DNA from: Patescibacteria group bacterium
GTDB lineage: Bacteria; Patescibacteriota; Patescibacteriia; Buchananbacterales; UBA6539
NCBI GenBank assembly: GCA_041649675.1
Contig: JBAZMQ010000001.1
Span: 253-64,252, forward strand
Reading direction: 5' to 3'
Length of the DNA stretch: 64,000 nucleotides
Part shown: piece after piece, positions 1,093 through 44,400 of the stretch
How positions within the stretch are numbered: position 1 is the first letter of the stretch
How the letters are laid out: each line of letters begins with the position of its first letter
Made by a program: the position numbers and the translations under genes
The notes under the pieces: generated by a model
What the model was told of the DNA's origin: nothing
Database searches by the model: none
What the model saw: only the letters and a program-made list of their open reading frames with translations

Positions 1093-1121
1093 TTGTCAAG
1101 AAAGGTAGATTATTGTATAAT
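1093..1121 (+). promoter_or_regulatory. sigma70-like promoter (TTGTCA-17-TATAAT), probably leaderless mRNA
   Basis: -35 ttgtca at 1093-1098, 17-nt spacer, -10 tataat at 1116-1121; ATG at 1131 lies about 10 nt after the -10. Confidence 0.5.
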
Positions 1122-1130
1122 GGCAAGCAT

Positions 1131-1970
1131 ATGAACCATAAACATTTATTTTTAATTGTACTAGCTTTTGCTTTTTTAGCTGGCTGCCAAACCCAGAATC
1201 AGGCTTTGGTAAATCAGAATATGCCAGTTAATTCAGATAACCAAAATAATCAACCAGCGCCCGTTGAGACTTCAACTGTAAGTTTGGTAAATAATTCGGT
1301 CAATACCAACCAAGCTGTTACCTCAACTGTGCCAGTTAATAAACCCACCAGTACGCCAAGCCAGACAACAACGGCAAAATTTTTGGACTACCCGGTGGCC
1401 TTTGCCACTCAGGCGCCTTATTCTAATTGGGATGCTTTGCACGAAGAAGCTTGTGAGGAAGCGAGTATGACCATGGCGGAAAAATACGTCAAAAATGAAC
1501 CCTTGACGGCGCACATCATGGAACAGTCAATTTTGAATGTCATTAAGTGGGAAGGGGAGAATGGTTATAAAGTTGATTTGTCAGCCCAGGAAGCCGTTGA
1601 TATATTGGCAAAATATTTTAACGTCAAATCGCAATTAGATAATACCGTGACAACGGCGGAGATTAAAAAACAATTACAAGCGGGAAATATTATTATCATT
1701 CCGGCCGCGGGTAGGCATTTGGGTAATCCTAACTTTAAGGCGCCGGGTCCGCTTTACCACATGTTAGTCGTTCGGGGATATGATGATAATAGGGGTGAGT
1801 TTATCACCAACGATCCCGGAACCAGAAAGGGCGAAGGCTATCGTTATAAATATCAGGTTTTAATTGATGCTATCCATAATTGGGATCATTTATGGGACCA
1901 GAACGGAGCCACTGTAACTGATTCGCAAATGGTGCAAGGTAAGAAAGTGATGATAATTATTAATAAATAA
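1131..1970 (+). CDS. lipoprotein with C39-like cysteine peptidase domain (Peptidase_C39_2-like)
   Basis: Signal peptide with lipobox LAGC; Thr/Asn/Gln-rich linker; C-terminal domain with conserved Cys (EEACEEAS) and His (YHMLVVRGYDD) as in YvpB-like C39 peptidases. The track start 1113 is a TTG; ATG 1131 preferred. Confidence 0.6.
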   Translation: MNHKHLFLIVLAFAFLAGCQTQNQALVNQNMPVNSDNQNNQPAPVETSTVSLVNNSVNTNQAVTSTVPVNKPTSTPSQTTTAKFLDYPVAFATQAPYSNWDALHEEACEEASMTMAEKYVKNEPLTAHIMEQSILNVIKWEGENGYKVDLSAQEAVDILAKYFNVKSQLDNTVTTAEIKKQLQAGNIIIIPAAGRHLGNPNFKAPGPLYHMLVVRGYDDNRGEFITNDPGTRKGEGYRYKYQVLIDAIHNWDHLWDQNGATVTDSQMVQGKKVMIIINK

Positions 1971-4635: not shown

Positions 4636-4968
4636 TCAATCAATGCCTTGAATCGTTTGTTTATTTGGTAAGTTGGCGGTGAATGGATTTTTAATCTCAG
4701 CCCAGTTGATTTTGTCGGGGGCGGAAAATTTTTTATCTAGCGCTGTCAGCGCTGTTCTGAATTTTTCAACGTTAATTGTGTAGGGTGATACCTCGGCTCG
4801 TAAAACAACAATTTCTTGTGATTGAGTGATAGTTTGGTAGAAATTTTTGTATAGAAATAAACTCAGAAATCCAATACTAATCAAAAATGTTATTAGAATA
4901 ACAATCGTAATAATTCTAGCTGAAGCCAGGAGTTTAATTATTCTTTGTATTAATTGCTTTATTTTCAT
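4636..4968 (-). CDS. hypothetical single-pass membrane protein (last gene of the pilus operon)
   Basis: 110 aa, N-terminal TM helix; operon context with pilO. Confidence 0.5.
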   Translation of the reverse strand: MKIKQLIQRIIKLLASARIITIVILITFLISIGFLSLFLYKNFYQTITQSQEIVVLRAEVSPYTINVEKFRTALTALDKKFSAPDKINWAEIKNPFTANLPNKQTIQGID

Positions 4969-4974
4969 ACCGGT

Positions 4975-5511
4975 TTATTTTTTTTCGGTATTAGATTGAG
5001 TAAAGGCATTGCTGTAAAGGGTGGCAGTGATTGAATCTTTCTCGGCATTAAACTGTAAGTTAGTAATATTTAAATAATAGTTAAGCTTTTCTAGTCCAGT
5101 TAAGTATTTCATTATCTGATAAAAATTGCCTTGAATTGTCATTTTGATTGGCAAGACTTGTAGATCGCCAGTTTTGGTGGTGCTTTGGGTATTTAATTCA
5201 AGATTTTGTTTGACACCGTTGGTGCTGGCAACATCTTCAAGGGTAGAAATAAATTTTAATTCATTTCCCTGGGGAATAAAAACTGTATTGAGTTTATCTT
5301 TTTGCGGTTTTATTTCTTCAAAATCGTTAACAGTTTTTTTTAATAGTTGCCCCCTTAAATATTTTTTTTCCAAATCGACTCTCTCAGCGTAAATAGCATT
5401 GCTGATTTTTTTTATATCATGGATAGTTGGGATTATAACCAAACCAGCAACTAAGCCAATAATGATAACGAAAAGTAGAATTGAAATAATTATCTTTATT
5501 TTAAAATTCAT
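4975..5511 (-). CDS. pilO: type IV pilus assembly protein PilO-like
   Basis: 178 aa, N-terminal TM helix then coiled-coil then C-terminal domain; position downstream of pilN. Confidence 0.55.
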   Translation of the reverse strand: MNFKIKIIISILLFVIIIGLVAGLVIIPTIHDIKKISNAIYAERVDLEKKYLRGQLLKKTVNDFEEIKPQKDKLNTVFIPQGNELKFISTLEDVASTNGVKQNLELNTQSTTKTGDLQVLPIKMTIQGNFYQIMKYLTGLEKLNYYLNITNLQFNAEKDSITATLYSNAFTQSNTEKK

Positions 5512-6074
5512 AAGTTTGCTAGTTGGTCAAGGTTGATTTTACCCTCAACTTGAAAATCTATATTTTCTTTTTTTAGAAGGTAATCCAGAGGTATGTCAAT
5601 ATCAGAAAGGAGGGAAAAGCTTTCCAGATTGCTTTTGAATTTTAATAAATTATCTCGGGTTTTGGCAAAACCATTAATTATAATTTGATTTTCCTCGCTG
5701 CTTTCTATATTTAAATTATAAAGACTGACATTATCCGGAATAATTAAAATAAATTTATTCATAAAACTAGTCCAGCTAAAGTAGCTCCCTTGGATTTTAT
5801 TTACGAGTGATAGCTGTTTATTAAAGTTTTCAATATCGGTATTTAATATTCTGCCATATTTTGTGGTCAAAGTGCTATTAGCGACCACTTCATTAAAATT
5901 ATTTTGTAAAGTTATTTTTGCTATCATTAAAACTACGGCAATAAAAATTGTGAAAAGTAAAAAAATTATAGTTAAATTTTTTATGACAATATAAAACTGA
6001 CGGAGGTTTAGTTCTTCTTTTTTTTGCGGTGGGATTAAATTCAAACTAATCATCGGTGTTTTTCCTTTTGCCAT
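5508..6074 (-). CDS. pilN: type IV pilus assembly protein PilN-like
   Basis: 188 aa, single TM, follows pilM with overlapping stop/start. Confidence 0.55.
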   Translation of the reverse strand: MAKGKTPMISLNLIPPQKKEELNLRQFYIVIKNLTIIFLLFTIFIAVVLMIAKITLQNNFNEVVANSTLTTKYGRILNTDIENFNKQLSLVNKIQGSYFSWTSFMNKFILIIPDNVSLYNLNIESSEENQIIINGFAKTRDNLLKFKSNLESFSLLSDIDIPLDYLLKKENIDFQVEGKINLDQLANL

Positions 6075-7117
6075 ACCCTTAAACCTAAGCCAATAGCAGT
6101 TGTATAGGATAGCAATTTATCCTGGGGGATTTTTATCTTTCTGTTTTTACCCAAATTAATTAAGGGATTAGCGATAGTTACTGGTAATTTTAGTTTTTCG
6201 GTCAGTACTTTGTCAATTTGACATAAATTAGCCCCGCCGCCACAAAGAATAATTTCAGTAACGGCATTGCTGTCCGGGGAGTTAGTCTTATAGAAGGTAA
6301 TGGCTTGATTTATATGATTGGCTAAATTATCAATCGCTAAGGCCATGATTTTTAAAACCGCCCCTTCGCATTTTTGCGGGTCCAGCCCACAAACTATTTT
6401 TGCCTTTTCAGCCTGGGCAAGCTCTAATTTTAAATTTGTAGCGATTGTTTCGGTTATTTTGTTACCAGAAATTGGTAGGCTGGAAGTAAATTGAACCGTT
6501 TGTTGATCATAGACGATTAAACCAGTCCTGGTAGCACCAAAGTCAATAATAATCTTAGCTTGTTTGGTATTTTTTTCTTTTTCGTCAATTACTGCGCGAG
6601 CAATAGCGATCGCTTCTATTTCAAAAATTAGTGGTATGAGCCCAGCTTTTTGGATGGCTGAAAAATAGGAATTAGATATTTCTTGGGGTACTACTCCGAC
6701 TAAAATTTTTGTTGTTTTATTGCTTTGTTCAACTATTTGCCAATCAAAGCAAGCCTCTTCTAAGTTTAAGGGAATGTGTTTTTTTATTTCTTCTTTAATT
6801 GATTCCGAGAGGTCTTTTTCTTTGCTAATATAAGGAATTTCAATAACTTTGATAAAAGTTTTTGGTTCAGGTAAAACGGTGACTACGTCTTTAGCAATTA
6901 TTTTTTTCTCTTGGCTAGTTTTAACTAATTTAGTAATTGAAGATACTAAATTATCCAATTTAGCAATTTCACCATTGATGATAATGCCTTGGTCGATCTT
7001 AATTTCATTAAAGGAAAAAATAATTAAATTTTTACCTCGTTTTTTGAGTTGAATTAATCGTAAAGCGCCTTCGCTAACATCTAGGCCAAAAGTATTTTTA
7101 GAAAAGTTGAATAACAT
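6050..7117 (-). CDS. pilM: type IV pilus assembly protein PilM (actin-like ATPase fold)
   Basis: 355 aa; MLFNFSKNTFGLDVSEGALRLIQLKK... PilM/FtsA-like N-terminus; GGG motif CGGGANL. Confidence 0.85.
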   Translation of the reverse strand: MLFNFSKNTFGLDVSEGALRLIQLKKRGKNLIIFSFNEIKIDQGIIINGEIAKLDNLVSSITKLVKTSQEKKIIAKDVVTVLPEPKTFIKVIEIPYISKEKDLSESIKEEIKKHIPLNLEEACFDWQIVEQSNKTTKILVGVVPQEISNSYFSAIQKAGLIPLIFEIEAIAIARAVIDEKEKNTKQAKIIIDFGATRTGLIVYDQQTVQFTSSLPISGNKITETIATNLKLELAQAEKAKIVCGLDPQKCEGAVLKIMALAIDNLANHINQAITFYKTNSPDSNAVTEIILCGGGANLCQIDKVLTEKLKLPVTIANPLINLGKNRKIKIPQDKLLSYTTAIGLGLRVWQKEKHR

Positions 7118-7126
7118 AGTTTTTTA

Positions 7127-8530
7127 TTATCGGTTCATTTCTTCCCAGGAAATGAATTCATACTTACCGCTGGTCGGAAAATATGGTGGCGGGGCGTAGA
7201 GAGTATTAGGATCGTAAACATAAGCACGATTTGCGTAGCCACTTGAGCCACTAGACATATAGGGCGTTAAATTACTGATTGTTGTGCCATATAGCGTAAA
7301 TTGGTTTCTTGATACAGTGGAACCGCATTCATAGCTTGAGCCATAATCAGGTCGATAGCGTTTGCCATTTTTAGCGATTAAAACAGCATCAATTTCTAAA
7401 TTATCAGCGCTGTATAATCCGATAACCACATTATTCTGAGCAATAAGGCCAATAACATCGTGTCCATCCTTGTTGGTGTATAACAAATTGTTATTTAGAA
7501 AAATATCGGCTGTGCCAGTATCAAGCGGTTCTTTGGCCGCAACAACTGTTGCTCGGCTATGGTCTATTGTCCCGTCAATCCAGACATTATCTTTGACAAA
7601 AATCATGCCATTTTCGGGAATCGTTGTGGTTTGCCAATCAGTTTTGTAATTGCCGATGCCGCCAGTTGGTTGATTGTTACAGTCTGACGTCTTAGTTTCT
7701 ACTGTGCGATAGCGGAAAGTATTATTAGTTTGAAATTGGAGGTGGTAACCTTGGTAGCCTGAAGCGGGTAGAAAAAATCCACTTGATGTAGCAGCCGCTT
7801 CCATCGTACTTAGATTTTGAGTAAAACCGGTAAAATCGACTGCTGGTACGGGAAATTCTTTGCCGGCCAAAAACACTTGACTTTCATGAGATTGACTAGT
7901 CCAAACTCCGTCGTGCCAAGAACCGCTATACCAATATTGTTGTAAGGCGCTGCTGATTATATTATGAGCGACACCATCAAATCTGACACCACCATTAGAA
8001 ATCACTGGACCATAAGTTTCAGAACCAGTTCCGTAATCAATATTGCTATTGACTACCGTAGTAAAACGGGCAAGGGAAGGGACGCCAAGTCGAACAGCCA
8101 CAATCTTTTTAGTGTTAGGGTAGTTTACTGTCCAGCCAGTTGATTTAATTTGAACTACAGTTGAGCCTGGGTAGTCTGGGTCGGGCGGAGTGATTGTTAA
8201 GCTGAAATAACCCAATAAATCACCACTTGGATCATGGTATTCATGAACATAAGGGCCGCAAGGATAGCAACTACTTTGGCCGGTGCCGTCGGTATAATCT
8301 TGCAAAGCATGAGCTAAATGCCAACGGTAGTAATTTGCGCCAGCTTCGGCAATTTGTTGAGCCAGACTCTGAGCTTCCCATTGGCGGCTTAGGCGCCTTT
8401 GTTGATTAACTAAACCAATCAGACCACTGGCAATTATTAAAAAGACACCCATAAAAACCAATGTTGTTATCAGTATATCACCTTTTTGCTGGTAAACCAA
8501 GATATTTTTTTTATAAATTTGGTGGTTCAT
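7127..8530 (-). CDS. PilX-like N-terminal TM protein (putative minor pilin or tip-associated protein)
   Basis: 467 aa; the N-terminal hydrophobic helix GDILITTLVFMGVFLIIASGLIGLV followed by QQRRLSRQWEAQ resembles the PilX_N domain. Confidence 0.45.
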   Translation of the reverse strand: MNHQIYKKNILVYQQKGDILITTLVFMGVFLIIASGLIGLVNQQRRLSRQWEAQSLAQQIAEAGANYYRWHLAHALQDYTDGTGQSSCYPCGPYVHEYHDPSGDLLGYFSLTITPPDPDYPGSTVVQIKSTGWTVNYPNTKKIVAVRLGVPSLARFTTVVNSNIDYGTGSETYGPVISNGGVRFDGVAHNIISSALQQYWYSGSWHDGVWTSQSHESQVFLAGKEFPVPAVDFTGFTQNLSTMEAAATSSGFFLPASGYQGYHLQFQTNNTFRYRTVETKTSDCNNQPTGGIGNYKTDWQTTTIPENGMIFVKDNVWIDGTIDHSRATVVAAKEPLDTGTADIFLNNNLLYTNKDGHDVIGLIAQNNVVIGLYSADNLEIDAVLIAKNGKRYRPDYGSSYECGSTVSRNQFTLYGTTISNLTPYMSSGSSGYANRAYVYDPNTLYAPPPYFPTSGKYEFISWEEMNR

Positions 8531-8558: not shown

Positions 8559-9191
8559 CTATAAATTATCTTTGAGGTTTCTGATCTGGGCATTTGAGAT
8601 TAAAATATAACTATCAGGAGCCTTGTCAATATCAATATTTATTTTTAAAAATAATCTTATTAGACGAATTTGGTTAACTGCCGCTGGCGTTGGTAGGGGA
8701 TTATTGGTGGTGTCGGTTGGGTAATTGCTGTTGTAGTAATAAAAAATTGGCGTGCTGGAATTTTGGACATATTTTGAAACTGTGGTGATGGTTTCGGTAG
8801 CAGTGTATTGCGCTGGGAAACCAGTTGGAACAATGACACCTTTTTTTAATTCAGTGTTGTCTAGAAAGTATCTTACTTTTTCAAACACTCCATCATTATT
8901 AATATCACTATAGAAAGCCAGGCTTTGGTTTTGGGCCGACTCTATTGGGTAGCTGCCATTTTCGGCCGGTGATGCTTTTCTGATTTCTTTTACCATAGTA
9001 TCAATATTTTTTCGGGCATAACTAATGGCATCACTTTGCTCCAAAGCAAAACGATTGGCCTCAAAACTTTGTTTCATGAAAGTTAAGACTAAAGAGCTAG
9101 CCATTAGGAATATACCAATTGCAATTAATGTTTCAGCTAAAGTGAAACCAAGCGGCTGAGTTATTTTTTGCGGCATTAATTTAACATTCAT
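8559..9191 (-). CDS. type IV pilin (prepilin-type N-terminal cleavage/methylation domain)
   Basis: Class III signal: ...TQPLG/FTLAETLIAIGIFL (G-FTLxE motif). Confidence 0.8.
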   Translation of the reverse strand: MNVKLMPQKITQPLGFTLAETLIAIGIFLMASSLVLTFMKQSFEANRFALEQSDAISYARKNIDTMVKEIRKASPAENGSYPIESAQNQSLAFYSDINNDGVFEKVRYFLDNTELKKGVIVPTGFPAQYTATETITTVSKYVQNSSTPIFYYYNSNYPTDTTNNPLPTPAAVNQIRLIRLFLKINIDIDKAPDSYILISNAQIRNLKDNL

Positions 9192-9192
9192 C

Positions 9193-12100
9193 TTATTCTA
9201 AATTTAGATTTATAGTTATGTTATCTCCTGGATTCAGTGAAACTGGTAACGGCGGTTCAGTACTAATAATTGTGTATCGTGAACCAGCTTGAAGCGAAAT
9301 TGAATAAGTGTCCCACTCCAAATTATTTAAAAGTAGTTGCCCACTAGCATTAGTAGAAAGATTTTGACTGTATTTAAAAATGTCAGGATTGGTGCCAACT
9401 TTTTTAGCCCCAGTTATAACTAAAGGTACATTGGCAGTATTGGTGTAAGCATTTGGATCAGCAGCATATTCAGCGGCAATAATATCATAATTGCCGCTTC
9501 GATTATCTTGCCAGGTAACAACCAAGTTTCCGGCTTGATTAATTATGATACCTGGATTTTTTTGATCGCCAGTAGTATTAGCATTAATTCTAATGTCGTT
9601 TGGCCATTGAGTAGTGCCAGCTGAATTTATTTTTTGGGTGTAGATATCAGTATCACCATTTCTAATGTCTTGCCAAACTACAAAGATGTTGCCAGAACTA
9701 TCCAAAGCGGCTCTGGGGTTTTCTTGGACACTACCAGAATGGGAGCTAATTGCCTGATCGCCATTTGGCCATAAGACATTGCCAGCAGAGTCATATTTTT
9801 GGCCATAAATATCATTATCGCCATTACGGTCATCTTCCCAAAAAATATAAATATTATTCTCATTATCAATTTTAACCACCGGATTATTTTGGTTGCCGCC
9901 GGCATTAGTGTTTATTCGAATATCATTTGGCCAAACAATATTACCGTTTGGATCAATTTTTTGGATAAATATATCATAATTATCAATCTGGTAATCTTCC
10001 CAAACAACATAAATATTTTCATCCTGATCAATTGCTAAATTAACTGATTGAGAATAACCGCCACCACTGGTGGTATGGGAATAGCCAATGTCAATTTGAT
10101 CCAAATTGATTTGTTGGCTGCCGTTACTCAGCAGGAAGGCTTTAAAGATAATTTTCCCTCGGGTGGTTGAAAAGGTTTTAATATGGTCATTAATGACACT
10201 GGCGGTATTGTAGTTTGGGCCACCCGCTTGGGCCCAATTAGTTCCGTTCCAGTATTTCCAAGTAACGCCATCGTCAGATAGTTGATAGTAAATTTCACCA
10301 CCATTTTTTGTCGCTGTTTCTGTGAAAGAATCCCAAGAAACTAAATTGCTGACAGTTAAAGAGCTAAGAGGTAAAACGCTTGGGCCGTTAGCTGGATAGC
10401 CTGCTCCTGATTCAGTCCATTGACAACCAGTTTGATTTTGGCAACTTAACTGAGTCAAGAAGTTAGAACAGCTGATCGTAGTGCCACTACATGGCCCTTG
10501 AATATCCCAATTACAACTGGTTTGGGTGCAGATTGGGCCAGTAGTTTGATTTTGGCATAAACAAGTGCCAGAACAAGTACCTTGTTGGGAACCCCAACTG
10601 CAGCTGGCCGCTTGGCAGGTAGACTGGCTAGAAATTTGGTTACAGTTACAGCCGGGGTTATCATAGCAAAACCAAAAAAACCAAGAGCAACCGCTGGTAG
10701 CCTTGCAAGTATTTTTACTGCCAATTGAGCCACAAGAACAATTGCCACTGCAACTTTGAGCGCCTGCTTGCCAACTGCAACTGGGCGCAGAAATACATTG
10801 GTTTTGGTCAGTAATTGTTGAGCACCCGCAGGTGTCACCGCTGCATGGTCCTTCTGCATCCCAATTGCAGGTACTTTGGTTGGTGCAGGATGTGGCACTG
10901 GAAAAAGTGGCACAATCACTGGCTGTGCCATTGCAAATTTTTATTGGCACTAATTGGGCAACGCCAGTAACAATTTTGACATTTGTCGTGCCGTCGCAAT
11001 TGCCACCGTCGCATTGGTAGTCAGCTAAGTTATTAAAGTCCCAATTGAAAGAATCTGTTGCTTTGTACATTGACGAAGAATTAGCATTGACTTTTAATTC
11101 ACTAGCCCAAATCATTTGACCATTAACATCAAATTTCTGTAAATAAATATCAGATTTGCCATTGCCAGCCCTTTCGTCTTTAAAAGCAATATATTCGGCC
11201 GTACTTGAAGCATTTAAAGCAATCTTAGGATAAATTTGATCAGCGGAAGTGCTGTCAGTATTAACTTTTATCGGCTGACTAAATAAACCATTGCCAGCGG
11301 TGTCGTATTTGTTAAAATAAATATCTTGGTTATTATTTTTATCATCATGCCAAGTGATGTAAATATTATTATTTTTATCAATTGCTAAATCCGCTCCGCC
11401 CTGATTATCAGAGCTAGTCATTGCTAAATCGTTGCTCCATTGTTTAGTTTGGGCGGTATATTTTTGGGTATAAATCCGACTGTTGTAATTACGGAAATCT
11501 TGCCAAGCAAAATAATAGTTTTGGTCAGCGCCCAAGGCAATAGCTGGGAAAAATTGGTCGGCGGTACCAACGTCAGTATTCACTGTCCATTCCGAGGGAA
11601 TGGTTTGAGAAAGGGTATGGATATCCAGGGTGGCAATTTTATCAATCGCAAAGCTAATTCTGGTTAGGCTACCTTCAATAACAGTTGCGTCAGGTTTGAT
11701 CGGGTTAGGATTACCAGCTGAATCACTGCAGCTAGTGCCATCAGGATCAATTGAACAAGTTGAATCAGTACTGTAGCCATCTTTGGTGACAATAATGTGG
11801 TAAGAGCTATTGGCTTGCGGTACGCTGGAATAATAGTAGCCTAAAGAGTTGGTTTGATGTGAAGAGTCATTAATTATTGGATTAGTTTGATTGTTAATAA
11901 TATGAATTGAAGCTTGGGAAACGGGTTGGCCATTAGCATCAATAGTATTAATCCACAAAACCCCAGCTCCTTGATTTGCTTCAATACCTTTTGGCGCGAT
12001 TGTGGTTACCGACACTACTTCTTTTGTGCCAAAGTGACCTAACCAAGAAACAGCGATTCTAACTTTCTTATAATCATTACCCAATTCGTCGGTTCCGGCT

Positions 12101-12453
12101 TCAACTGTGCCGTCGAACGGATCGTCTACGTAATCAACGCTAACGGCAATATTATAATTAATATTATTTAAAGTGGTGGAGTCGGATTGACTAATTGAGC
12201 CCGGGACTAAACCACCAACAGTGCCGACCTTGTCGTAAGGTAAATTATGAATCGTTTCTGATACTTCATTGGCAATAGTAATAGCACCAATTCTAGCTTT
12301 GCTTTCAGTAATGACCTTGGCGGAAAATTGAAACATTCCTAACACGCCTATACTGGTAATTGCCAAAATTAAAATTGCCACCAGAACTTCAACTAGGGTA
12401 AAACCAGTGCCAGCTGCCTTATCTCTGGCTGAGATTTTTAGTTTTTTGTGCAT
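9193..12453 (-). CDS. giant prepilin-type protein (1086 aa) with CarbopepD_reg-like domain, 7 beta-propeller-like repeats and 5 Cys-rich repeats
   Basis: N-terminus AAGTG/FTLVEVLVAILILAI prepilin signal. Seven ~47-aa repeats [IY]W.D.R.G..DIY.QK.D..G...WP. Five ~28-aa repeats C.C...C...C.W. Segment IHIINNQTNP...GYYY...YHIIVTKDGY is carboxypeptidase-regulatory-like. Confidence 0.8.
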   Translation of the reverse strand: MHKKLKISARDKAAGTGFTLVEVLVAILILAITSIGVLGMFQFSAKVITESKARIGAITIANEVSETIHNLPYDKVGTVGGLVPGSISQSDSTTLNNINYNIAVSVDYVDDPFDGTVEAGTDELGNDYKKVRIAVSWLGHFGTKEVVSVTTIAPKGIEANQGAGVLWINTIDANGQPVSQASIHIINNQTNPIINDSSHQTNSLGYYYSSVPQANSSYHIIVTKDGYSTDSTCSIDPDGTSCSDSAGNPNPIKPDATVIEGSLTRISFAIDKIATLDIHTLSQTIPSEWTVNTDVGTADQFFPAIALGADQNYYFAWQDFRNYNSRIYTQKYTAQTKQWSNDLAMTSSDNQGGADLAIDKNNNIYITWHDDKNNNQDIYFNKYDTAGNGLFSQPIKVNTDSTSADQIYPKIALNASSTAEYIAFKDERAGNGKSDIYLQKFDVNGQMIWASELKVNANSSSMYKATDSFNWDFNNLADYQCDGGNCDGTTNVKIVTGVAQLVPIKICNGTASDCATFSSATSCTNQSTCNWDAEGPCSGDTCGCSTITDQNQCISAPSCSWQAGAQSCSGNCSCGSIGSKNTCKATSGCSWFFWFCYDNPGCNCNQISSQSTCQAASCSWGSQQGTCSGTCLCQNQTTGPICTQTSCNWDIQGPCSGTTISCSNFLTQLSCQNQTGCQWTESGAGYPANGPSVLPLSSLTVSNLVSWDSFTETATKNGGEIYYQLSDDGVTWKYWNGTNWAQAGGPNYNTASVINDHIKTFSTTRGKIIFKAFLLSNGSQQINLDQIDIGYSHTTSGGGYSQSVNLAIDQDENIYVVWEDYQIDNYDIFIQKIDPNGNIVWPNDIRINTNAGGNQNNPVVKIDNENNIYIFWEDDRNGDNDIYGQKYDSAGNVLWPNGDQAISSHSGSVQENPRAALDSSGNIFVVWQDIRNGDTDIYTQKINSAGTTQWPNDIRINANTTGDQKNPGIIINQAGNLVVTWQDNRSGNYDIIAAEYAADPNAYTNTANVPLVITGAKKVGTNPDIFKYSQNLSTNASGQLLLNNLEWDTYSISLQAGSRYTIISTEPPLPVSLNPGDNITINLNLE

Positions 12454-13548
12454 TTATATTGCCTGACTTAAGGAGTACATTGGCGTAATAACGGCCACGG
12501 CCATTCCGGCCACGGCCACACCTAAAATAACCATTAAGACTGGTTCAAGGATAGAAGGCAAATTAGTCATGGTCTGATTAACTTCTTCTTCATAAAATAT
12601 CGCTGACTCTTCCAAAATATTGTCTAAAGCGCCGGTCTCTTCACCAACCGCAATCATTTGGAGAATTACGGGAGGAAAGAGTTTTGAGTGAGGTGCTAGA
12701 GAAACTTGAATATTGACCCCTTTTTTTATTTTTTCTTTTGCCTCTATTAAGGCGTCTTGATAAATAGTATTGCCTAAAACTCTGGAAGTAATTTCAAACG
12801 ATTGAACGATTGGGATGTCGGTCTTTAAAAGTGAACTTAAGGTTCGGCAGAATCGAGCGATGTTAATTTTTCTAATTATGGCGCCGATGATCGGTAAGAG
12901 TAAAAGGAATCTATGTAATTGACGTTTGCCTTTTGGTAAAGTAACGATTCGGCCAAAAATTGCAATGAAAATGCCAGCACCAATAGCTAAATAAATTCCG
13001 TATTTTACCGAAAATTCACTGGCGCCGATTAAAATTCTGGTGGCTAAGGGCAGGGGAACATTAATTTCTTTAAAGACGCTGGAAATGGTTGGAATAACGT
13101 AAACCAACATTAATATGCCAATGCCTAGCATCATCGTTATTACAATCGCCGGATAAATCATGGCACTTTTAACTTTGGCGATAATCTCATGATCCTTTTT
13201 CATCTGAATAAATAGTTGGTTTAAAACCTCTTCTAATTTACCGGAAGTTTCGCCAGCCCTGATCATGTTAATGAATAAATCACCAAAAATTCTTTGGTAG
13301 TTTTCCAAGCCCTTGGAAAGGAGGTTGCCTTTTTCAACATTCAGTTCAAGGTCAATTAAAATTGCTTTGAAACTTTTAGAAGATGATTGTTCGCTTAGAG
13401 TCTTTAAGGCAACCGACAAAGATATGCCGGCCTTAAGCATAATACCAAGCTGTTGGACAAAAAATATTTTTTGGGCCAAAGGGATCTTTTTTTGGATTTT
13501 TAGCCAACGAGAAATATTAAATTTTTCTGGCTTATTTTCGGTCGCCAT
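12454..13548 (-). CDS. pilC: type IV pilus platform protein PilC (GspF family)
   Basis: 364 aa, two GspF-like repeats, polytopic membrane protein. Confidence 0.9.
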   Translation of the reverse strand: MATENKPEKFNISRWLKIQKKIPLAQKIFFVQQLGIMLKAGISLSVALKTLSEQSSSKSFKAILIDLELNVEKGNLLSKGLENYQRIFGDLFINMIRAGETSGKLEEVLNQLFIQMKKDHEIIAKVKSAMIYPAIVITMMLGIGILMLVYVIPTISSVFKEINVPLPLATRILIGASEFSVKYGIYLAIGAGIFIAIFGRIVTLPKGKRQLHRFLLLLPIIGAIIRKINIARFCRTLSSLLKTDIPIVQSFEITSRVLGNTIYQDALIEAKEKIKKGVNIQVSLAPHSKLFPPVILQMIAVGEETGALDNILEESAIFYEEEVNQTMTNLPSILEPVLMVILGVAVAGMAVAVITPMYSLSQAI

Positions 13549-13572: not shown

Positions 13573-15303
13573 TTAGTCTTTGGTCACTCGAAGCACTTCT
13601 TCAATGGTAGTGATGCCGCTTTTCGCTTTAACAAAACCATCTTCCATAATTGTAATCATGCCATCAGCTTTAGCGGCTTTTTGAATTTCGGCTGCCGTGG
13701 TACCCTTGAGGATTAATTCGGCAATTTTAGGGGTAATTTCTAAAACTTCATAAAGACCCATGCGGCCTTTGTAGCCGGTTTTGTCGCATTTTTTGCAGCC
13801 TTTACCGCGATAAAAAAGTAATGATTCTTTGCTTTGTTTTTTGGTAATCAAACTTTGTTTTTCCAAAGCCTCCAAAATTGATTGGAAATTAATTTCTTTT
13901 TCCAATTTATCCAACTCAGTTTTGGTCAAATTATAGCTTTCAATGCATTCCTGACAAATTTTTCTAACCAACCGTTGGGCGATAATTAAATTGCAGGTTG
14001 AAGAGATTAAAAACGCTGGTACACCCATTTCACTTAAACGTGGTAGGGTGGTTGGGGCGTCGTTGGTATGTAGGGTCGATAAAACCAGGTGACCAGTTAA
14101 GGCGGCATGAATCGCGATTTCGGCCGTTTCTTGGTCCCGAATTTCTCCAACCATAATAATGTTAGGATCTTGCCGTAAAAAAGCGCGCAGACCAGTGGCA
14201 AAAGTGTAACCAATTTTTGGATTAATTTGGCTTTGGTTTAATCCTGGAATTCGATATTCAATCGGGTCTTCAATGGTAGTAATATTCACTTCCGGCCGGT
14301 TTAAAATATTTAAGATAGAATAAAGAGTGGTGGTTTTACCCGAACCGGTCGGACCAGTAACCAATACCATGCCGTGTGGTTTTTTGATATTTCTTTTAAC
14401 CTTTTCTAAATTTTCTTTTTGAAAACCTAATTGTTCCAAGCTAATAATACCGGTTTGTTCGTTCAATGCCCGTAAAACGATTTTTTCGCCATCATAAGTC
14501 GGAATAATAGAAACACGGAAAGAAACATTATAATCGTTAGTGGCGACTTTAAAACGGCTGTCTTGAGGTAAGCGGTGTTCATCTAATTTGAGGTTTGATA
14601 AAATTTTGATCCTGGCGATAATGCCTGAATGGACGGTTTTGGGCAAAGTCATCACTGTTCTTAAAACCCCGTCAATCCGATAACGGACCATTACTTCTTT
14701 TTCGGTTGGTTCAATGTGAATATCAGAAGCATTTTCAAAAATGGCGTATTCCAGTAGGGTATCAACAATTCTGATAACTGGCAGATCGTGGGCCAGCTCC
14801 TTTAGTTTTGAACCGGTTTCGGTTTGGTCAGCAGTTTCTTTTTCTTTGGTTAATTCTTGAAATTCCGCTTTTAAACCCTTGTGATAATTTTTTAAAGCTT
14901 CATTAATGCTTTCGGGTGTAGTCAAATGAATTTTTATTTCTAAGCCAGTTTTTTTGCCTAAAAATTCAAAAATTTGTAGATCCTCTGGATTAAGAGAAGC
15001 AACTTTAAGTTCAGAATCGGTTTTATCAAAGGTGATGATTTTATGAGTAGTAGCGATTGTTTCGGGAATCAAAAAAAGAATATCTTTACGAATATTCTCA
15101 TTTTTTAAATTGATGAACGGGACGTTGAAAAACTGAGCGGCAATTTCATAAAGCCGCTCCTCGCCAATAATTTTTTGAGAGGTTAAGTATTGCTCCAGGC
15201 CCTGGTTTCTTTTTTTAGCTTCATCTAGATAAAGTTCCAGCTCTTTTTGGGCAATAGTATTGGTTTTTAGGAGAATGTCTTCTAGTTGGGCTTCATTAAA
15301 CAT
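13573..15303 (-). CDS. pilB: type IV pilus assembly ATPase PilB (GspE family)
   Basis: Walker A VLVTGPTGSGKTTTL, His box, tetracysteine CKKC...C motif; 576 aa. Confidence 0.93.
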   Translation of the reverse strand: MFNEAQLEDILLKTNTIAQKELELYLDEAKKRNQGLEQYLTSQKIIGEERLYEIAAQFFNVPFINLKNENIRKDILFLIPETIATTHKIITFDKTDSELKVASLNPEDLQIFEFLGKKTGLEIKIHLTTPESINEALKNYHKGLKAEFQELTKEKETADQTETGSKLKELAHDLPVIRIVDTLLEYAIFENASDIHIEPTEKEVMVRYRIDGVLRTVMTLPKTVHSGIIARIKILSNLKLDEHRLPQDSRFKVATNDYNVSFRVSIIPTYDGEKIVLRALNEQTGIISLEQLGFQKENLEKVKRNIKKPHGMVLVTGPTGSGKTTTLYSILNILNRPEVNITTIEDPIEYRIPGLNQSQINPKIGYTFATGLRAFLRQDPNIIMVGEIRDQETAEIAIHAALTGHLVLSTLHTNDAPTTLPRLSEMGVPAFLISSTCNLIIAQRLVRKICQECIESYNLTKTELDKLEKEINFQSILEALEKQSLITKKQSKESLLFYRGKGCKKCDKTGYKGRMGLYEVLEITPKIAELILKGTTAAEIQKAAKADGMITIMEDGFVKAKSGITTIEEVLRVTKD

Positions 15304-16861: not shown

Positions 16862-17001
16862 AAGAATCAAGAATTATGAATTATGAATAAAGAAGAAAAC
16901 AATTTTGTCTATATTAAAAAAGAAAAAGCCCTCCGGACAGAGACGGAAACTCCTCAAGACTTTTTTTTAATGATAATATATTGTTATTAGTTTTTAATAA
17001 A

Positions 17002-18456
17002 ATGGCCAACTTAAAGGGTAAAAAAGTTACAGTAATGGGTTTGGGACTCCACGGCGGCGGAGTCGCTTCTGTTAATTGGTTGGTAAAACATGGCGCTAAA
17101 GTGACCGTGACTGATTTAAAAACGGCTAAGGAATTAAAATTATCACTTAAAAAACTTAATAACTTATCAAAATGTAAACTGGTATTGGGCCGACACCGAG
17201 AGATTGACTTTAGGAATGCTGACATAATCGTGCAAAATCCGGATGTGCCCAAAGAGTCAAAATATTTAAAAATTGCCAAGAAGGCCGGTATTTTGATTGA
17301 AAATGAAGCCAGTCTTTTTTTTAAAAATTGTGCGGCAAAGATTGTTGGGGTAACTGGCACTCGCGGGAAATCAACTACCAGTACTTTGATTTATGAAATA
17401 TTAAATAAATCAGAGATCAGAAATCAGAGATCAGAAATCAGAGATCAGAAATCAGAGATCAGAAATCAGAGATCAGAAATCAGAATCTGGCTGGCTGGTC
17501 AGCCCCAGCAGCCGATGATGGCGATTTTGGATAAGGTTAAAAAAAACGATTTGGTTGTTTTGGAACTTTCTTCCTGGCAGTTGGAAATATTGGGCCAGCA
17601 AAAATTAAGTCCACATGTTGCCATAGTTACCAATATCTATCCGGATCATTTGAATCGCTATTCTTCAATGGCCGGGTATATCACCGCTAAAAAAAATATT
17701 TTTAAATTTCAAAGTAAAAACGATTTTGTAATTTTAAATTTTGATAATACTCAAACCAAAAAGATGGGTCGCGAAGTTTTGAGCCAAAGATTTTGGTTTT
17801 CCAAAAAATATTTAGCTGATCAGAACAGTTGTTTTTTAAAAGGGGATTATATATATTTTCAACAAAATGGCAAAATAAGCAAACTGGTTAATCCAGAAAT
17901 TTCTAAATTAAAGGGTGAGCATAATTTGGAAAATATTTTAGCCGCCAGCGCAGTCGCTGGTATTTTTGGCGCTAAGCCAAAAGATATCCAAAATGGTCTG
18001 AAGAATTTTTTTGGCTTGCCCGGAAGAATTGAATTGATCAGAACAGTTAAAGGTATAAAATATATCAATGATACAACGGCAACTACGCCTGACGGAACAA
18101 TGGCAGCGCTTAAGGCTTTGCCGGCAAAAAAGATAGTTTTAATCGCCGGCGGCACTTCAAAAAATATTCCCGATTTTAAATATCGGGAATTAGCCAAAAT
18201 AATTAGTCAACGATGCAGGGCTGTAGTTTTATTACCTGGTGGCGGCAGTGATCAAATTCTAAAGGTCTTAAGCCGGGTTAACTTTAAACCAGTTGTTTAT
18301 CATACCGCTGACATGGTGCAGGCAGTTACTTTGGCCGCCAGCTTGGCCAAAAACAATGATATTGTTTTGTTGTCGCCAGCTTGTGCTTCTTTTAATATTT
18401 TTATCAATGAGTTTGACCGTGGTGATAAATTTAATCAGGTAGTAGCAAAATTATGA
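17002..18456 (+). CDS. murD: UDP-N-acetylmuramoylalanine--D-glutamate ligase
   Basis: KGKKVTVMGLGLHGGG Rossmann N-terminus, GTRGKSTTSTL P-loop, Mur ligase C-domain. Track start 16981; ATG 17002 (MANLKGKK) fits the MurD N-terminus better. Carries an in-frame heptanucleotide repeat insert. Confidence 0.9.
   Translation: MANLKGKKVTVMGLGLHGGGVASVNWLVKHGAKVTVTDLKTAKELKLSLKKLNNLSKCKLVLGRHREIDFRNADIIVQNPDVPKESKYLKIAKKAGILIENEASLFFKNCAAKIVGVTGTRGKSTTSTLIYEILNKSEIRNQRSEIRDQKSEIRNQRSEIRIWLAGQPQQPMMAILDKVKKNDLVVLELSSWQLEILGQQKLSPHVAIVTNIYPDHLNRYSSMAGYITAKKNIFKFQSKNDFVILNFDNTQTKKMGREVLSQRFWFSKKYLADQNSCFLKGDYIYFQQNGKISKLVNPEISKLKGEHNLENILAASAVAGIFGAKPKDIQNGLKNFFGLPGRIELIRTVKGIKYINDTTATTPDGTMAALKALPAKKIVLIAGGTSKNIPDFKYRELAKIISQRCRAVVLLPGGGSDQILKVLSRVNFKPVVYHTADMVQAVTLAASLAKNNDIVLLSPACASFNIFINEFDRGDKFNQVVAKL
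17411..17487 (+). repeat. tandem heptanucleotide repeat (CAGAGAT/CAGAAAT, about 11 units) inside murD
   Basis: cagagatcagaaat repeated; translates in frame as SEIRNQR SEIRDQK SEIRNQR SEIR, inserted after the P-loop. Confidence 0.9.
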
Positions 18457-42093: not shown

Positions 42094-44400
42094 TTATTTT
42101 AGGTGTTGAGCTGGTACGCCAAGGATTGAAGTGCCATTTAATAAATACATTTTCTTTTCCCTTTCAACCACGATAAAGTCTTTAAGGTCAGTAAAAGCCT
42201 CAGAATGGTATTGGTTGATTAAATTGCCATTTTTATCAAAAACTATCAGGCGCTTGGTTGGGGGATCAAGCACATAAAGATATTTTGAAAATTCATCAGT
42301 TTTGATTTTGGTTGGATTTTGAATTTTTGGATCAACCACATTGGTTTTAAAATCAACTGGCTTGCCATTTTGCAGCTTAATAATTGAACCGTCAGTTTTA
42401 ACAATGTAAATTGAACCATCAACCGTAAAGGCTTTGGCGTCATTCAAAACGATATTATCTTTTAACCAGCCGTTAACTTTGCTGTAATCATTATTAACTT
42501 TTGAATAGCGATAGATTTGGCTATTTTTGCTGTCTAGAGTGTAGAGCTGACCCTTGAAGGAAGTAAAATCAGCAATGTTGATATTTTTATTAAAATTTAT
42601 ATTCAATTTTGGAAAAGAATCAGTGCCGGGTGTGAGCAAGAATGGAGTGTTTGAAGCGTTTAAAAAAATCAACTCTTTATCACTTACAGCTGTGCCAAAA
42701 ATTAAGCTTGCAGTGTTTGAATCCGGCGATAGAGCTGCTGTCAATACTCTTGTATCTAAATTTGCTTTATAAATTGATTGATTATTTTGATTTTGAGTGT
42801 AAACATTTCTACCAGAAAGCAGAATAACATTGGCAATTTTGGCCTGAGAATCAAGATTGCCAAAATTAACAATTTGAATTGGCTCGGTAATTTCAATTAA
42901 ATGGCGGAGTTTTTGTAGTTGCTCCTCAATACCTTGTTGGAGCAAAATAATTTGTTGTTTTTGAAATTTTGTAATCGGTTTTAGGTTGGCAATCATGTTT
43001 TTTGAATCAACCAAAAATTGCCTGGCCTGATTTTCATCGCGGTAAATTAAACTGGCTTCCGCCTCATTTTTTTTATTTTCCGCTTGGGCAAATACCAAGT
43101 TAAAAGCATCTTTTTTCTGATCTTGCCAATTTTTTATTCCTAGCCAAAATAAGCTAAGGGAGAATAACACGGCTAAAATGATTGTTGTTATTAATAAAAC
43201 TTGGCTTGATTTTGGCAACTGTTTATACTTACCAATCGGATTAGCCAAAGCCTTATTAATCAAAGTAACTGCTTTGGCCCAAAACGGCTGGTTGGTAATC
43301 TTGGAACCAATGGTTTTGCTAACAGTTAAAATTGGTTGGGTTATTTTTTTAGTATCAAAGTGAAGATTAGCCAGGGGATTAGTTATTTTTATTTTTGGAG
43401 TTATTTTATTTAGATTGAATCTTGGTTGGAAATTAAATTTTGGGATGATTGTTTTCTTTTGTTTTTCATAAAGACGGTTGGTTTTCTTTTTAGCTTGGCC
43501 AAGATAGTTTTGCAATTGATTCTTCAAGGCAATAGTATATTTTTTAACTTCCGGCATAATTGACGGGGTTAAAAATTTTTCGGTTTCTCTTTCAGTATTA
43601 ATCAACTCTTTGATTGAATCTTGCGAGGCGGCTTGACGGTAATCAAACTCTTGCGGACTGACTGGTTTTTTTTCTAAAGCGGTTATCTTTTCTAATTCAG
43701 CAGTCATTATGCCAAAGTTTTCCTTACTGCCGGTAGTGGCTAATAATTTTTTTAATTCCAATAGTCCTTCAGACGGTAAATTGGTAGCAATTATATTTTT
43801 TATTCTTTCTAAAGAGAAATAGTCAAGAATATTGGCCGTGCTGACAAATAAAATATCCCTTGATTTAATTTTTCCGCTGATGATTTGGGAAAATAATCGG
43901 AAAGGGTCGGGCAGGCTTAATGGGGCCTGGGTTGATTCCAGGATATTGATTATTCGGTAGGAGCTAAGGTTGGTATTATAAAAAAGAATTGCTCCAATGT
44001 TGCCAATAACAGCAAAATGCAAATCTTGGTTACAAATAACAGCAACCATAATGTTTATTTTTTCTAGATTCAGAGATATTTGTTCACTTTCTAGGAAAGA
44101 AGCAATTGATAGATTAGTTTTTTTTAAAGCCGCTTCAAACTTTTCGGACAGCAGCAACGGCTTTTCTTCTAGTGTTGATTTTTTTTGGTAGTAATAGTTA
44201 TTTTTAATTTCATCAACAATTAGGTCAATTAAATCAGAATTTTTTTCATCATCAGCTTGGATTTCAATTAAGCCAAATACTTTTCCAAGCTTACCAGCCA
44301 AGTCCTTGGTTGGCTTGGTGGCAAATGTTCTTACATAGGTTTTTGGCTGACCAGGTCGCTGGACAACTAGCTGATTAATTTTTGTTTCTAAATAATCCAT
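42094..44400 (-). CDS. large hypothetical membrane protein (768 aa)
   Basis: Central TM segments (VLLITTIILAVLFSLSLFWLGI), long soluble N- and C-terminal regions, no confidently recognisable domain. Confidence 0.55.
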   Translation of the reverse strand: MDYLETKINQLVVQRPGQPKTYVRTFATKPTKDLAGKLGKVFGLIEIQADDEKNSDLIDLIVDEIKNNYYYQKKSTLEEKPLLLSEKFEAALKKTNLSIASFLESEQISLNLEKINIMVAVICNQDLHFAVIGNIGAILFYNTNLSSYRIINILESTQAPLSLPDPFRLFSQIISGKIKSRDILFVSTANILDYFSLERIKNIIATNLPSEGLLELKKLLATTGSKENFGIMTAELEKITALEKKPVSPQEFDYRQAASQDSIKELINTERETEKFLTPSIMPEVKKYTIALKNQLQNYLGQAKKKTNRLYEKQKKTIIPKFNFQPRFNLNKITPKIKITNPLANLHFDTKKITQPILTVSKTIGSKITNQPFWAKAVTLINKALANPIGKYKQLPKSSQVLLITTIILAVLFSLSLFWLGIKNWQDQKKDAFNLVFAQAENKKNEAEASLIYRDENQARQFLVDSKNMIANLKPITKFQKQQIILLQQGIEEQLQKLRHLIEITEPIQIVNFGNLDSQAKIANVILLSGRNVYTQNQNNQSIYKANLDTRVLTAALSPDSNTASLIFGTAVSDKELIFLNASNTPFLLTPGTDSFPKLNINFNKNINIADFTSFKGQLYTLDSKNSQIYRYSKVNNDYSKVNGWLKDNIVLNDAKAFTVDGSIYIVKTDGSIIKLQNGKPVDFKTNVVDPKIQNPTKIKTDEFSKYLYVLDPPTKRLIVFDKNGNLINQYHSEAFTDLKDFIVVEREKKMYLLNGTSILGVPAQHLK

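Follow-up and report, generated by a model that had tools for sequence, protein, structure and literature searches.

Closest described systems

Type IV pilus subunits that carry large grafted domains have been described in two settings that frame the gene analysed here, which encodes a 1086-aa prepilin on a 64,000-nt stretch of DNA (hereafter the window) from a Patescibacteria group bacterium (assembly GCA_041649675.1, contig JBAZMQ010000001.1, positions 253 to 64,252). The survey of Raynaud et al. (2021) covers more than 1200 modular pilins, which fall into 264 architectures, and places the combination of a pilin and PF13620 in the top 15; several of their 15 representative proteins belong to lineages within the candidate phyla radiation (CPR), and the modules that modular pilins graft are adhesive and probably exposed at the tip (PMC8179133). 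In Nanosynbacter lyticus TM7x, the minor pilin PilX2 has a C-terminal heptabladed propeller that resembles the PLL and CV39L lectins; efficient binding to the host requires PilX2, in a system in which the glycans of the host cell wall matter (Grossman et al. 2024, PMC11623550). The general kind of protein is thus already known, both as modular pilins, including pilin+PF13620 proteins in the CPR, and as a propeller-bearing minor pilin of a cultivated patescibacterium. A first-pass annotation of the window, made from the letters alone, had called such proteins rarely characterised, an assessment overtaken by the 2021 catalogue (PMC8179133) and by the knock-out of a propeller minor pilin that aids host binding (PMC11623550).

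For the 1086-aa protein we establish the gene, its signal motif, the folds of its domains, its nested architecture, its conservation and the operon slot that it occupies (Table 1). By the definition of Raynaud et al. (2021) it is a modular pilin, the added domains being PF13620 (residues 171-235), a seven-bladed propeller and further sandwiches. Like the modular pilins of S. sanguinis (PilB with a vWA domain, PilC with a lectin domain), it combines a small pilin module, preceded by a class III signal, with grafted domains, and like them it is found among minor pilins, with a predicted tip location and ligand binding; PF13620 it has in common with the pilin+PF13620 class. Its payload, however, is far larger and multi-domain (a sandwich, a propeller, a nested cysteine stalk with its own sandwich, and a last sandwich), and most of it escapes Pfam, so that surveys based on InterPro signatures would record pilin+PF13620 only.

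With PilX2 the protein shares its occurrence as a minor pilin in Patescibacteria, a seven-bladed propeller with PLL and CV39L neighbours and a proposed role as a pilus adhesin. From its published description, which is the sole basis of our comparison, PilX2 has RCC1 repeats and a non-canonical signal and is not a predicted PilD substrate, whereas the giant pilin has a canonical G/FTLVE site (the slash marks the cleavage site here and below), CylK-like W-x-D-x-R-x-G-x-x-D-I-Y blades, extra sandwiches and an insertion in its propeller. We therefore rejected assignment to the PilX2-type RCC1-repeat class, given that the giant protein has no RCC1 Pfam match and that its signal is canonical.

A single intact gene

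The open reading frame (ORF) occupies exactly the interval given by the first-pass annotation, which had left the strand unstated; it lies on the minus strand, and the plus strand at 9193-12453 has stops throughout. NCBI holds the identical protein, from a metagenome-assembled genome (MAG), under the name 'prepilin-type N-terminal cleavage/methylation domain-containing protein [Patescibacteria group bacterium]'. Nine full-length orthologues of 1081-1112 aa align with it end to end at 52-63% identity, and all 32 cysteine positions are kept in the orthologues examined for them (6 of 6). In P0003, the sole orthologue checked for gene order, the gene sits on the 922-kb contig JBAZSB010000001 in the same order as here, and the flanks are also the same: mraY/murD/ftsW and, at the opposite end, the cysteine desulfurase/NifU genes. 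Because the nine orthologues have the same architecture, with the same gene order in the one checked, we exclude a frameshift or a chimera, and the view of the ORF as one intact gene stands. Collapse of the internal repeats during assembly is likewise unlikely and no concern, since the copies of the DNA repeats are just 60-74% identical (their spacing is 153-174 nt) and Tandem Repeats Finder reports no tandem array within the gene; repeat numbers are, moreover, equal in the orthologues. A scan for related loci with the single protein returned two close MAG relatives, one Kerfeldbacteria relative and three weak matches outside Patescibacteria; the MAGs of close relatives are Patescibacteria labelled Kerfeldbacteria and Falkowbacteria.

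Prepilin signal and pilin module

The N-terminus reads MHKKLKISARDKAAGTG/FTLVEVLVAILILAI, a basic leader up to Gly17 followed by Phe at +1, Glu at +5 and a hydrophobic helix. With its mature start at …AAGTG/FTLVEVLVAILILAITSIGVLGMF, this is a class III prepilin signal, in agreement with the first-pass annotation, and cleavage by a prepilin peptidase after Gly17 is predicted. The NCBIfam model TIGR02532 recognises it with 17.1 bits, above the cutoff of 16.3; Pfam N_methyl reaches 18.9-21.1 bits, slightly below its cutoff of 21.2, which relatives pass at 27.8-34.5 bits.

An AlphaFold2 (AF2) model of the whole protein, built from a 50-sequence alignment, has a mean predicted local distance difference test score (pLDDT) of 75.7. 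Its well-modelled regions are a helix (20-69), a set of strands (90-152), a sandwich (164-285), the blades (300-470 and 800-1000) and a second sandwich (1005-1086). The first two make up the lollipop shape of a pilin, with helix 20-69 and strands 90-95, 98-109, 128-139 and 142-152. The matches that bear on the subtype of the pilin cover the N-terminal helix only: TIGR02523 (PilV) reaches 27.8 bits (E 3e-6), short of its cutoff of 52.2, GspI matches at E 0.003, each of them over residues 16-68, and a ComGE match is likewise sub-threshold and confined to the helix. Within the pilin head there is an acidic loop, D110-K129 (DDPFDG…D…DYK; window 12067-12126, minus strand). Over 50 family members five of its residues (D111, D114, D127, Y128, K129) do not vary and two more, D110 and D122, hardly do; the loop may be a metal-binding site.

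A seven-bladed propeller flanked by sandwiches

The domain that follows the pilin module had been described as CarbopepD_reg-like, and it does match PF13620 (CarboxypepD_reg) at residues 171-235, where it scores 32.4 bits, the gathering score being 32.3; Cys233 and Cys242 form a conserved pair in this sandwich. At the other end of the protein, PF13715 and PF17802 match the C-terminal sandwich in the relatives P0036 and P0086. Between the two lie seven repeats of the form W-x-D-x-R-x-G-x-x-D-I-Y-x-Q-K. Their number was correctly given by the first-pass annotation; their period is about 51-58 residues and not about 47, and they are not contiguous but split 3+4. Comparison of the fold with known propellers aligned more than 300 residues, which is more than either group of blades alone contains, and therefore blades 1-3 and 4-7, as modelled, make a single seven-bladed propeller. 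The propeller that had been expected is thus modelled with confidence and is found again by fold search and by profile comparison with CylK, whereas the cysteine knot expected alongside it is not (see below).

A family profile matches the CylK propeller in the PDB with E 4e-11, and a single-sequence phmmer search against the PDB gave no match. TIGR04275 (beta_prop_Msarc) aligns to five stretches (E 1e-10; 41 bits against a cutoff of 85) and SBBP (PF06739) gives E 9.2; with scores below the curated cutoffs, we read both as resemblance and not as membership. When the blades were searched in isolation, Pfam returned nothing for blades 1-3 and noise only for blades 4-7 (B_lectin 3e-4, SBBP 9.2). 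Among the Foldseek matches are the V. cholerae neuraminidase and many propellers of glycoside hydrolases and polysaccharide lyases, and lectin propellers, those of the fucose lectins PLL and CV39L included, rank among the best structural neighbours and score as well as the enzymes. The conserved residues of the propeller belong to the repeated structural motif, and no singular catalytic set stands out.

Two labels that could be attached to such a propeller were rejected. The blades had been annotated as Asp-box repeats; the pattern S.D.G.[TS]W has no match anywhere in the 1086-aa protein, the blade motif being W-x-D-x-R-x-G-x-x-D-I-Y, and a BNR, sialidase-like label does not apply. The Pfam and HMMER searches that had been suggested as a check returned CarboxypepD_reg in the giant protein, but neither BNR nor Asp-box. 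Membership in PilY1/PilC (PF05567 / IPR008707), which is defined by a PilY1-type propeller signature together with the lack of a pilin N-terminus, was rejected on direct test. What the tip adhesin PilY1/PilC of diderm type IVa pili has in common with our protein is its large size, a seven-bladed propeller and, on the placement proposed below, association with the tip and joint action with a priming complex of minor pilins.

A cassette nested between blades 3 and 4

The propeller and the stalk that the first-pass annotation had expected do not follow each other in linear order. The architecture is instead nested: about 330 aa are inserted at the junction of blades 3 and 4, between strand D of the former and strand A of the latter. 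In about 40 relatives of ~740 aa the alignment covers residues 1-460 and 800-1086, with seven contiguous blades and nothing that matches 471-800, from which it follows that the long form carries an insertion. Ten orthologues have the insert. The converse, that the short form is a deletion product, is disfavoured because the ~740-aa form is far more widespread and because the cassette occurs independently in unrelated pilin-like proteins. In the sequence register, GGGYSQSVNLAID at 796-808 corresponds to the displaced strand A. The top face of a propeller is its usual binding face. In propellers it is also the face on which strand D connects to strand A, as the CylK study (PMC8916777) describes, and by the same register the blade 3/4 junction is probably a top-face loop. 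Integrin alpha with its inserted I domain and the V. cholerae neuraminidase with its inserted lectin domain offer an analogy only, at 5-9% identity; the module inserted here differs from theirs in consisting of a cysteine-repeat stalk and a small sandwich and in lying between blades 3 and 4.

Of the protein's 32 cysteines, 30 fall within residues 481-677, the remaining two being C233 and C242. Most belong to cysteine-rich repeats, which had been counted as five units of about 28 aa with a C-x-C pattern; we find six of about 30 aa, with 4/5/5/5/5/4 cysteines, and C-x-C is present in the middle four only. In the full AF2 model this region has a pLDDT of 23-55. A second model of the insert alone, built from 18 proteins found by homology search with the insert, gives 31-63 for the repeats, each unit being a short strand-helix-helix, and 81-96 for the sandwich that follows. 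We propose that the repeats, which are disulfide-capable, form a disulfide-stabilised stalk. The sandwich holds the only Asp-box-like stretch of the protein, a single copy of SDDGVTW (726-732) that is one residue short of an Asp-box and is canonical in 14 of 26 homologues.

The cysteine repeats have no match in Pfam, NCBIfam or the PDB; Pfam returned nothing for either half of the insert, and a profile of the insert against the PDB gave just a non-significant disintegrin match (E 4.3). An exhaustive HMMER search with the insert nevertheless returned 797 cluster representatives at E <= 1e-3. Among the best 150 of these, the ~115-aa domain is the best-matching stretch in most and many also carry 0 to 6 cysteine repeats; about half of the 150 have a pilin-like G/(Q/F)-S-L-x-E helix at the N-terminus, and some exceed 2000 aa. 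Named carriers of the cassette come from Parcubacteria and Magasanikbacteria. Giant pilins with this cassette appear to be common.

Within P0123-P0160 we also observed many proteins of 800 to more than 2400 aa with a Gln+1 pilin-like start (G/QSLLEV…), such as P0131 (2414 aa) and P0129 (2277 aa). They carry one to several stretches that match the insert query, mostly over the ~115-aa Asp-box sandwich.

Size variants in one operon slot

The slot pilB-pilC-[X]-~200aa-~470-505aa-pilMNO is kept for variants of 1084, 1185 and 1366 aa (Table 1). The loop D110-K129 also hosts the ~420-aa insert of the variants of 1150-1185 aa, and further relatives with large inserts are P0043, P0048, P0049, P0054 and P0056-P0064. 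A ~600-aa relative with pilin and CarboxypepD_reg domains and no propeller (L010) is located elsewhere, outside the slot. The alignments suggest three insertion hot spots in the pilin scaffold: one in the head loop at about residue 121, one around blade 2, following residue ~371, and one where blades 3 and 4 meet. Among the orthologues the domains are about equally conserved, at 51-66%, and therefore carry no signature of rapid diversification; variation seems, from these comparisons, to come via the insertion of modules instead.

Operon context

The operon lies entirely on the minus strand and comprises PilB, PilC, the giant gene, the genes of a 210-aa and a 467-aa protein, PilM, PilN, PilO and a 110-aa membrane protein. 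The type IV pilus context first assigned is borne out by Pfam matches to PilB, PilC, PilM, PilN and PilO, and the giant gene is accordingly encoded with assembly machinery of the type IV pilus/type II secretion system (T2SS) kind, with PilB and PilC on one flank and two pilin-like genes and PilM/N/O on the other. Its coupling to the neighbours is tight: the pilC stop directly abuts its ATG, and the next pilin gene begins one base past its stop.

The 210-aa protein, whose position is kept in loci L001, L003, L011 and L012, had been called a conventional short pilin. Its matches are to minor pilins, all of them sub-threshold, and none supports a major pilin; we regard it as a putative partner in a tip complex. 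For the 467-aa protein, described as PilX-like, the PilX_N match is weak and sub-threshold; the protein lacks Glu+5 and, by analogy with characterised tip complexes, is a likely, putative cap. Sequence searches of the PDB with these two proteins gave nothing useful. Only two canonical prepilin motifs are present in the window, that of the giant protein and that of the 210-aa protein. Our Pfam scan covered about 55 window ORFs, short ORFs being left out, and among those scanned there is no match to a secretin, to PilD (Peptidase_A24) or to PilT. The absence of a secretin reported at first thus holds among the scanned ORFs; as a peculiarity of the operon it does not, being expected for a monoderm lineage.

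Beside the pilus operon, a Peptidase_C39_2-like protein (1113-1970, plus strand) adjoins the Fe-S genes (Rrf2, NifU, cysteine desulfurase) that flank it, and this neighbourhood is kept in the 922-kb relative.

Table 1. Coordinates of the giant gene, its parts and its neighbours in the window, and of size variants in related loci
Feature	Coordinates	Strand	Remarks
Whole gene, 1086-aa modular minor prepilin	9193..12453	minus	ATG 12451-12453, stop 9193-9195; 1086 codons
Class III signal leader, residues 1-17 (MHKKLKISARDKAAGTG)	12403..12453	minus	sequence; TIGR02532 above cutoff, N_methyl borderline
Pilin module, residues 18-160	11974..12402	minus	AF2 pLDDT mostly ~80-90; Phe+1, Glu+5, alpha1 helix, 4-stranded head
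CarboxypepD_reg-like beta-sandwich, residues 161-290	11584..11973	minus	PF13620; AF2 pLDDT 80-96
Propeller blades 1-3, residues 298-470	11044..11562	minus	
Insert start, linker with Cys481/Cys486, residues 471-506	10936..11043	minus	absent in ~740-aa relatives; low pLDDT
Six ~30-aa Cys-rich repeats, residues 507-686	10396..10935	minus	motif C-x(3-6)-C-(x-C)-x8-C-x(4-5)-C-x-W
Inserted ~115-aa beta-sandwich, residues 687-800, motif ETATKNGGEIYYQLSDDGVTW	10054..10395	minus	Asp-box-like at 726-732
Propeller blades 4-7, residues 801-1004	9442..10053	minus	
C-terminal beta-sandwich, residues 1005-1086	9196..9441	minus	AF2 pLDDT ~90; prealbumin/CarbopepD_reg_2-like in relatives
PilB, extension ATPase	13573-15303	minus	Pfam T2SSE 2.5e-133
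PilC, platform protein	12454-13548	minus	Pfam T2SSF 2.4e-50
210-aa minor prepilin (G/FTLAE)	8559..9191	minus	sub-threshold ComGE, ComGF, GspJ, GspI
467-aa pilin-like protein (…QQKG/DILIT…)	7127..8530	minus	weak sub-threshold PilX_N, ComGE, ComGG
PilM	6050-7117	minus	Pfam PilM_2 2.9e-46
PilN	5508-6074	minus	1.8e-04, 21.9 bits, slightly below cutoff 22.8
PilO	4975-5511	minus	Pfam 1.6e-07
110-aa membrane protein	4636-4968	minus	
742-aa variant (Falkowbacteria-type)	L003		no insert; same order from pilC on; pilB upstream not called
1084-aa variant	L001		insert at blade 3/4, as here; pilB upstream
1185-aa variant	L012 (7001-10558)		~420-aa insert in pilin-head loop, query residue 121/122; pilB upstream
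1366-aa variant	L011 (7001-11101)		~700-aa insert after query residue ~371; pilB upstream

Proposed function and alternatives

Type 4 filaments assemble from tip to base, starting from a complex of minor pilins that is capped by a subunit lacking Glu5 (PMC10191384), and the tip complex of S. sanguinis consists of an I-like subunit and two modular pilins with grafted adhesive domains (PMC10191384, PMC8179133). The three adjacent pilin-like genes described here, two with Glu5 and one without, fit this scheme, which suggests that the payload would be displayed at the tip. On balance we favour, with moderate confidence, the view that the giant protein is a modular minor type IV pilin located at the tip and binding a ligand, probably a glycan on a host surface. 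Cleavage after Gly17 and methylation of Phe18 would fall to a prepilin peptidase from a gene outside the window, and the alpha1 helix with its Glu+5 would let the pilin module dock with the 210-aa protein, which also has Glu+5, and with the 467-aa protein as the likely cap. The three-protein complex would prime assembly on the PilB/PilC/PilMNO machine and so end at the tip of the pilus, where a payload of about 930 residues would be shown: the CarboxypepD_reg-like sandwich as a spacer, the seven-bladed propeller and the C-terminal sandwich, with the cassette at blades 3/4 presenting a CBM-like (carbohydrate-binding-module-like) sandwich of ~115 aa on a stalk of six disulfide-capable repeats. 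The propeller, the inserted sandwich or both would bind the ligand, most likely a glycan, on another cell or surface, and give a host-dependent bacterium attachment mediated by its pili. The suggestion of a tip adhesin in a CPR episymbiont is thus upheld as to the CPR origin of the sequence and is plausible as to adhesion, a function that we infer.

A binding role is favoured because lectin propellers are among the best structural neighbours, because the conserved propeller residues form a structural motif and not a catalytic set, because the inserted cassette looks like a rigid stalk with a CBM-like domain, and because PilX2 of TM7x, a propeller-bearing minor pilin, is required for efficient host binding. 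A rival idea is that the propeller is an enzyme, displayed or delivered by the pilus, that cuts a polymer of the host cell wall or capsule, in the manner of a glycoside hydrolase, a polysaccharide lyase or a sialidase. CylK, the nearest sequence relative of solved structure, is indeed an enzyme, enzyme propellers are among the fold matches and BNR_4 is above threshold in some relatives. Identity to such enzymes is, however, 6-14%, the invariant columns are those of the repeated W-x-D motif rather than a unique catalytic constellation, and lectin propellers score equally well; CylK itself is a cytoplasmic alkylating enzyme of cyanobacteria whose active site requires an N-terminal Ca-binding domain that is absent here. 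We consider an enzymatic role quite improbable.

It is also unlikely, in our view, that the class III signal serves solely as a membrane anchor or export device, so that the protein would be a surface adhesin or receptor, or part of a short pseudopilus (compare the archaeal 'bindosome' and the T2SS pseudopilins). A payload of ~930 residues could impede passage through the wall, the ORFs scanned in the window include no major pilin, PilT or PilD, and many proteins with the same cassette and a Gln+1 pilin-like start reach 2400 aa, a size hard to picture on a filament. Yet the gene holds the first minor-pilin position of a full assembly operon, to which it is tightly coupled and in which its slot is kept across variants; Glu+5 is present, and characterised modular pilins do assemble into filaments (PMC8179133). 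A role as the DNA receptor of a competence pilus, like ComZ of Thermus, seems to us highly improbable, even though the best sub-threshold matches of all three pilin-like proteins are to ComG-type minor pilins. The scavenging of DNA and nucleotides that is generally attributed to CPR bacteria also speaks for such a role. The propeller, the cysteine-rich repeats and the CBM-like sandwiches are, however, typical of the recognition of proteins or glycans and not of DNA binding, the protein is acidic and polar (105 D+E against 58 K+R), and the TM7x pilin mutants tested kept wild-type competence (PMC11623550). Each of these three explanations is less well supported than that of a tip adhesin.

Several observations nonetheless weigh against the tip-adhesin proposal. 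The window contains neither a major pilin nor PilD, so that the filament itself is undocumented at this locus, and no disulfide-forming system was found among the ORFs scanned. The cysteine region is modelled with low confidence (pLDDT 23-63 over the two models), and the PilV/GspI-like subtype of the pilin is suggested by sub-threshold matches that are confined to the N-terminal helix. The alignments, finally, reveal no hypervariable binding surface of the sort expected of a fast-evolving determinant of host specificity.

A more speculative proposal, which we are inclined to doubt, is that the slot houses an integrin-like tip head with exchangeable cassettes, in which a conserved scaffold (pilin, sandwich, propeller, sandwich) would receive modules at the hot spots, the cysteine stalk with its Asp-box sandwich being a mobile recognition cassette.

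Other open reading frames of the window

Four further ORFs may be recorded. An 856-aa ORF (60886-63456, plus strand) has the coupling-protein domains of type IV secretion, TrwB_AAD_bind, T4SS-DNA_transf and TraG-D_C, and may belong to a monoderm-type, conjugation-like type IV secretion system; such a system is reported for Patescibacteria (PMC12102498). A large, uncharacterised protein of 768 aa (42094-44400, minus strand) has no Pfam match at E<=1e-4. In a 387-aa ORF (46017-47180, plus strand) a TsaD-like N-terminal segment is joined to bacterial TSP3 (Ca-binding) repeats and a YkuD L,D-transpeptidase domain, an unusual fusion that possibly reflects a miscalled start or two merged functions. 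Lastly, a MurD-like ORF (16981-18456, plus strand) contains, inside the Mur ligase at residues ~150-180, an in-frame tandem insert of heptads, SEIRNQR-SEIRDQK-SEIRNQR-SEIR.

Implications

Little is understood of the way in which Patescibacteria, dependent as they are on other cells, recognise their hosts. Work on Saccharibacteria has made type IV pili the best experimental lead to date, and the locus described here adds a candidate recognition subunit, well conserved and structurally interpretable, from a different and uncultivated lineage. We found no earlier description of a canonical prepilin that bears a CylK-like seven-bladed propeller, of a cysteine-repeat stalk and Asp-box sandwich nested at a blade junction, of a conserved operon slot with three insertion hot spots, or of the wide recurrence of an unannotated cassette in giant pilin-like proteins. 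The nested-insertion design extends the idea of the modular pilin and overturns no concept.

The two unannotated building blocks, the ~30-aa cysteine repeat and the ~115-aa Asp-box sandwich, recur in ~800 protein clusters, and defining them would allow many large 'hypothetical' pilin-like proteins to be better annotated. If the proposal of exchangeable cassettes is true, the range of hosts or substrates of uncultivated episymbionts would be set by the insertion of modules into a propeller at the tip of the pilus, and the cassette, as yet uncharacterised, would constitute a new family of receptor-binding modules rich in disulfides, common to hundreds of other giant pilin-like proteins, some of them longer than 2000 aa.

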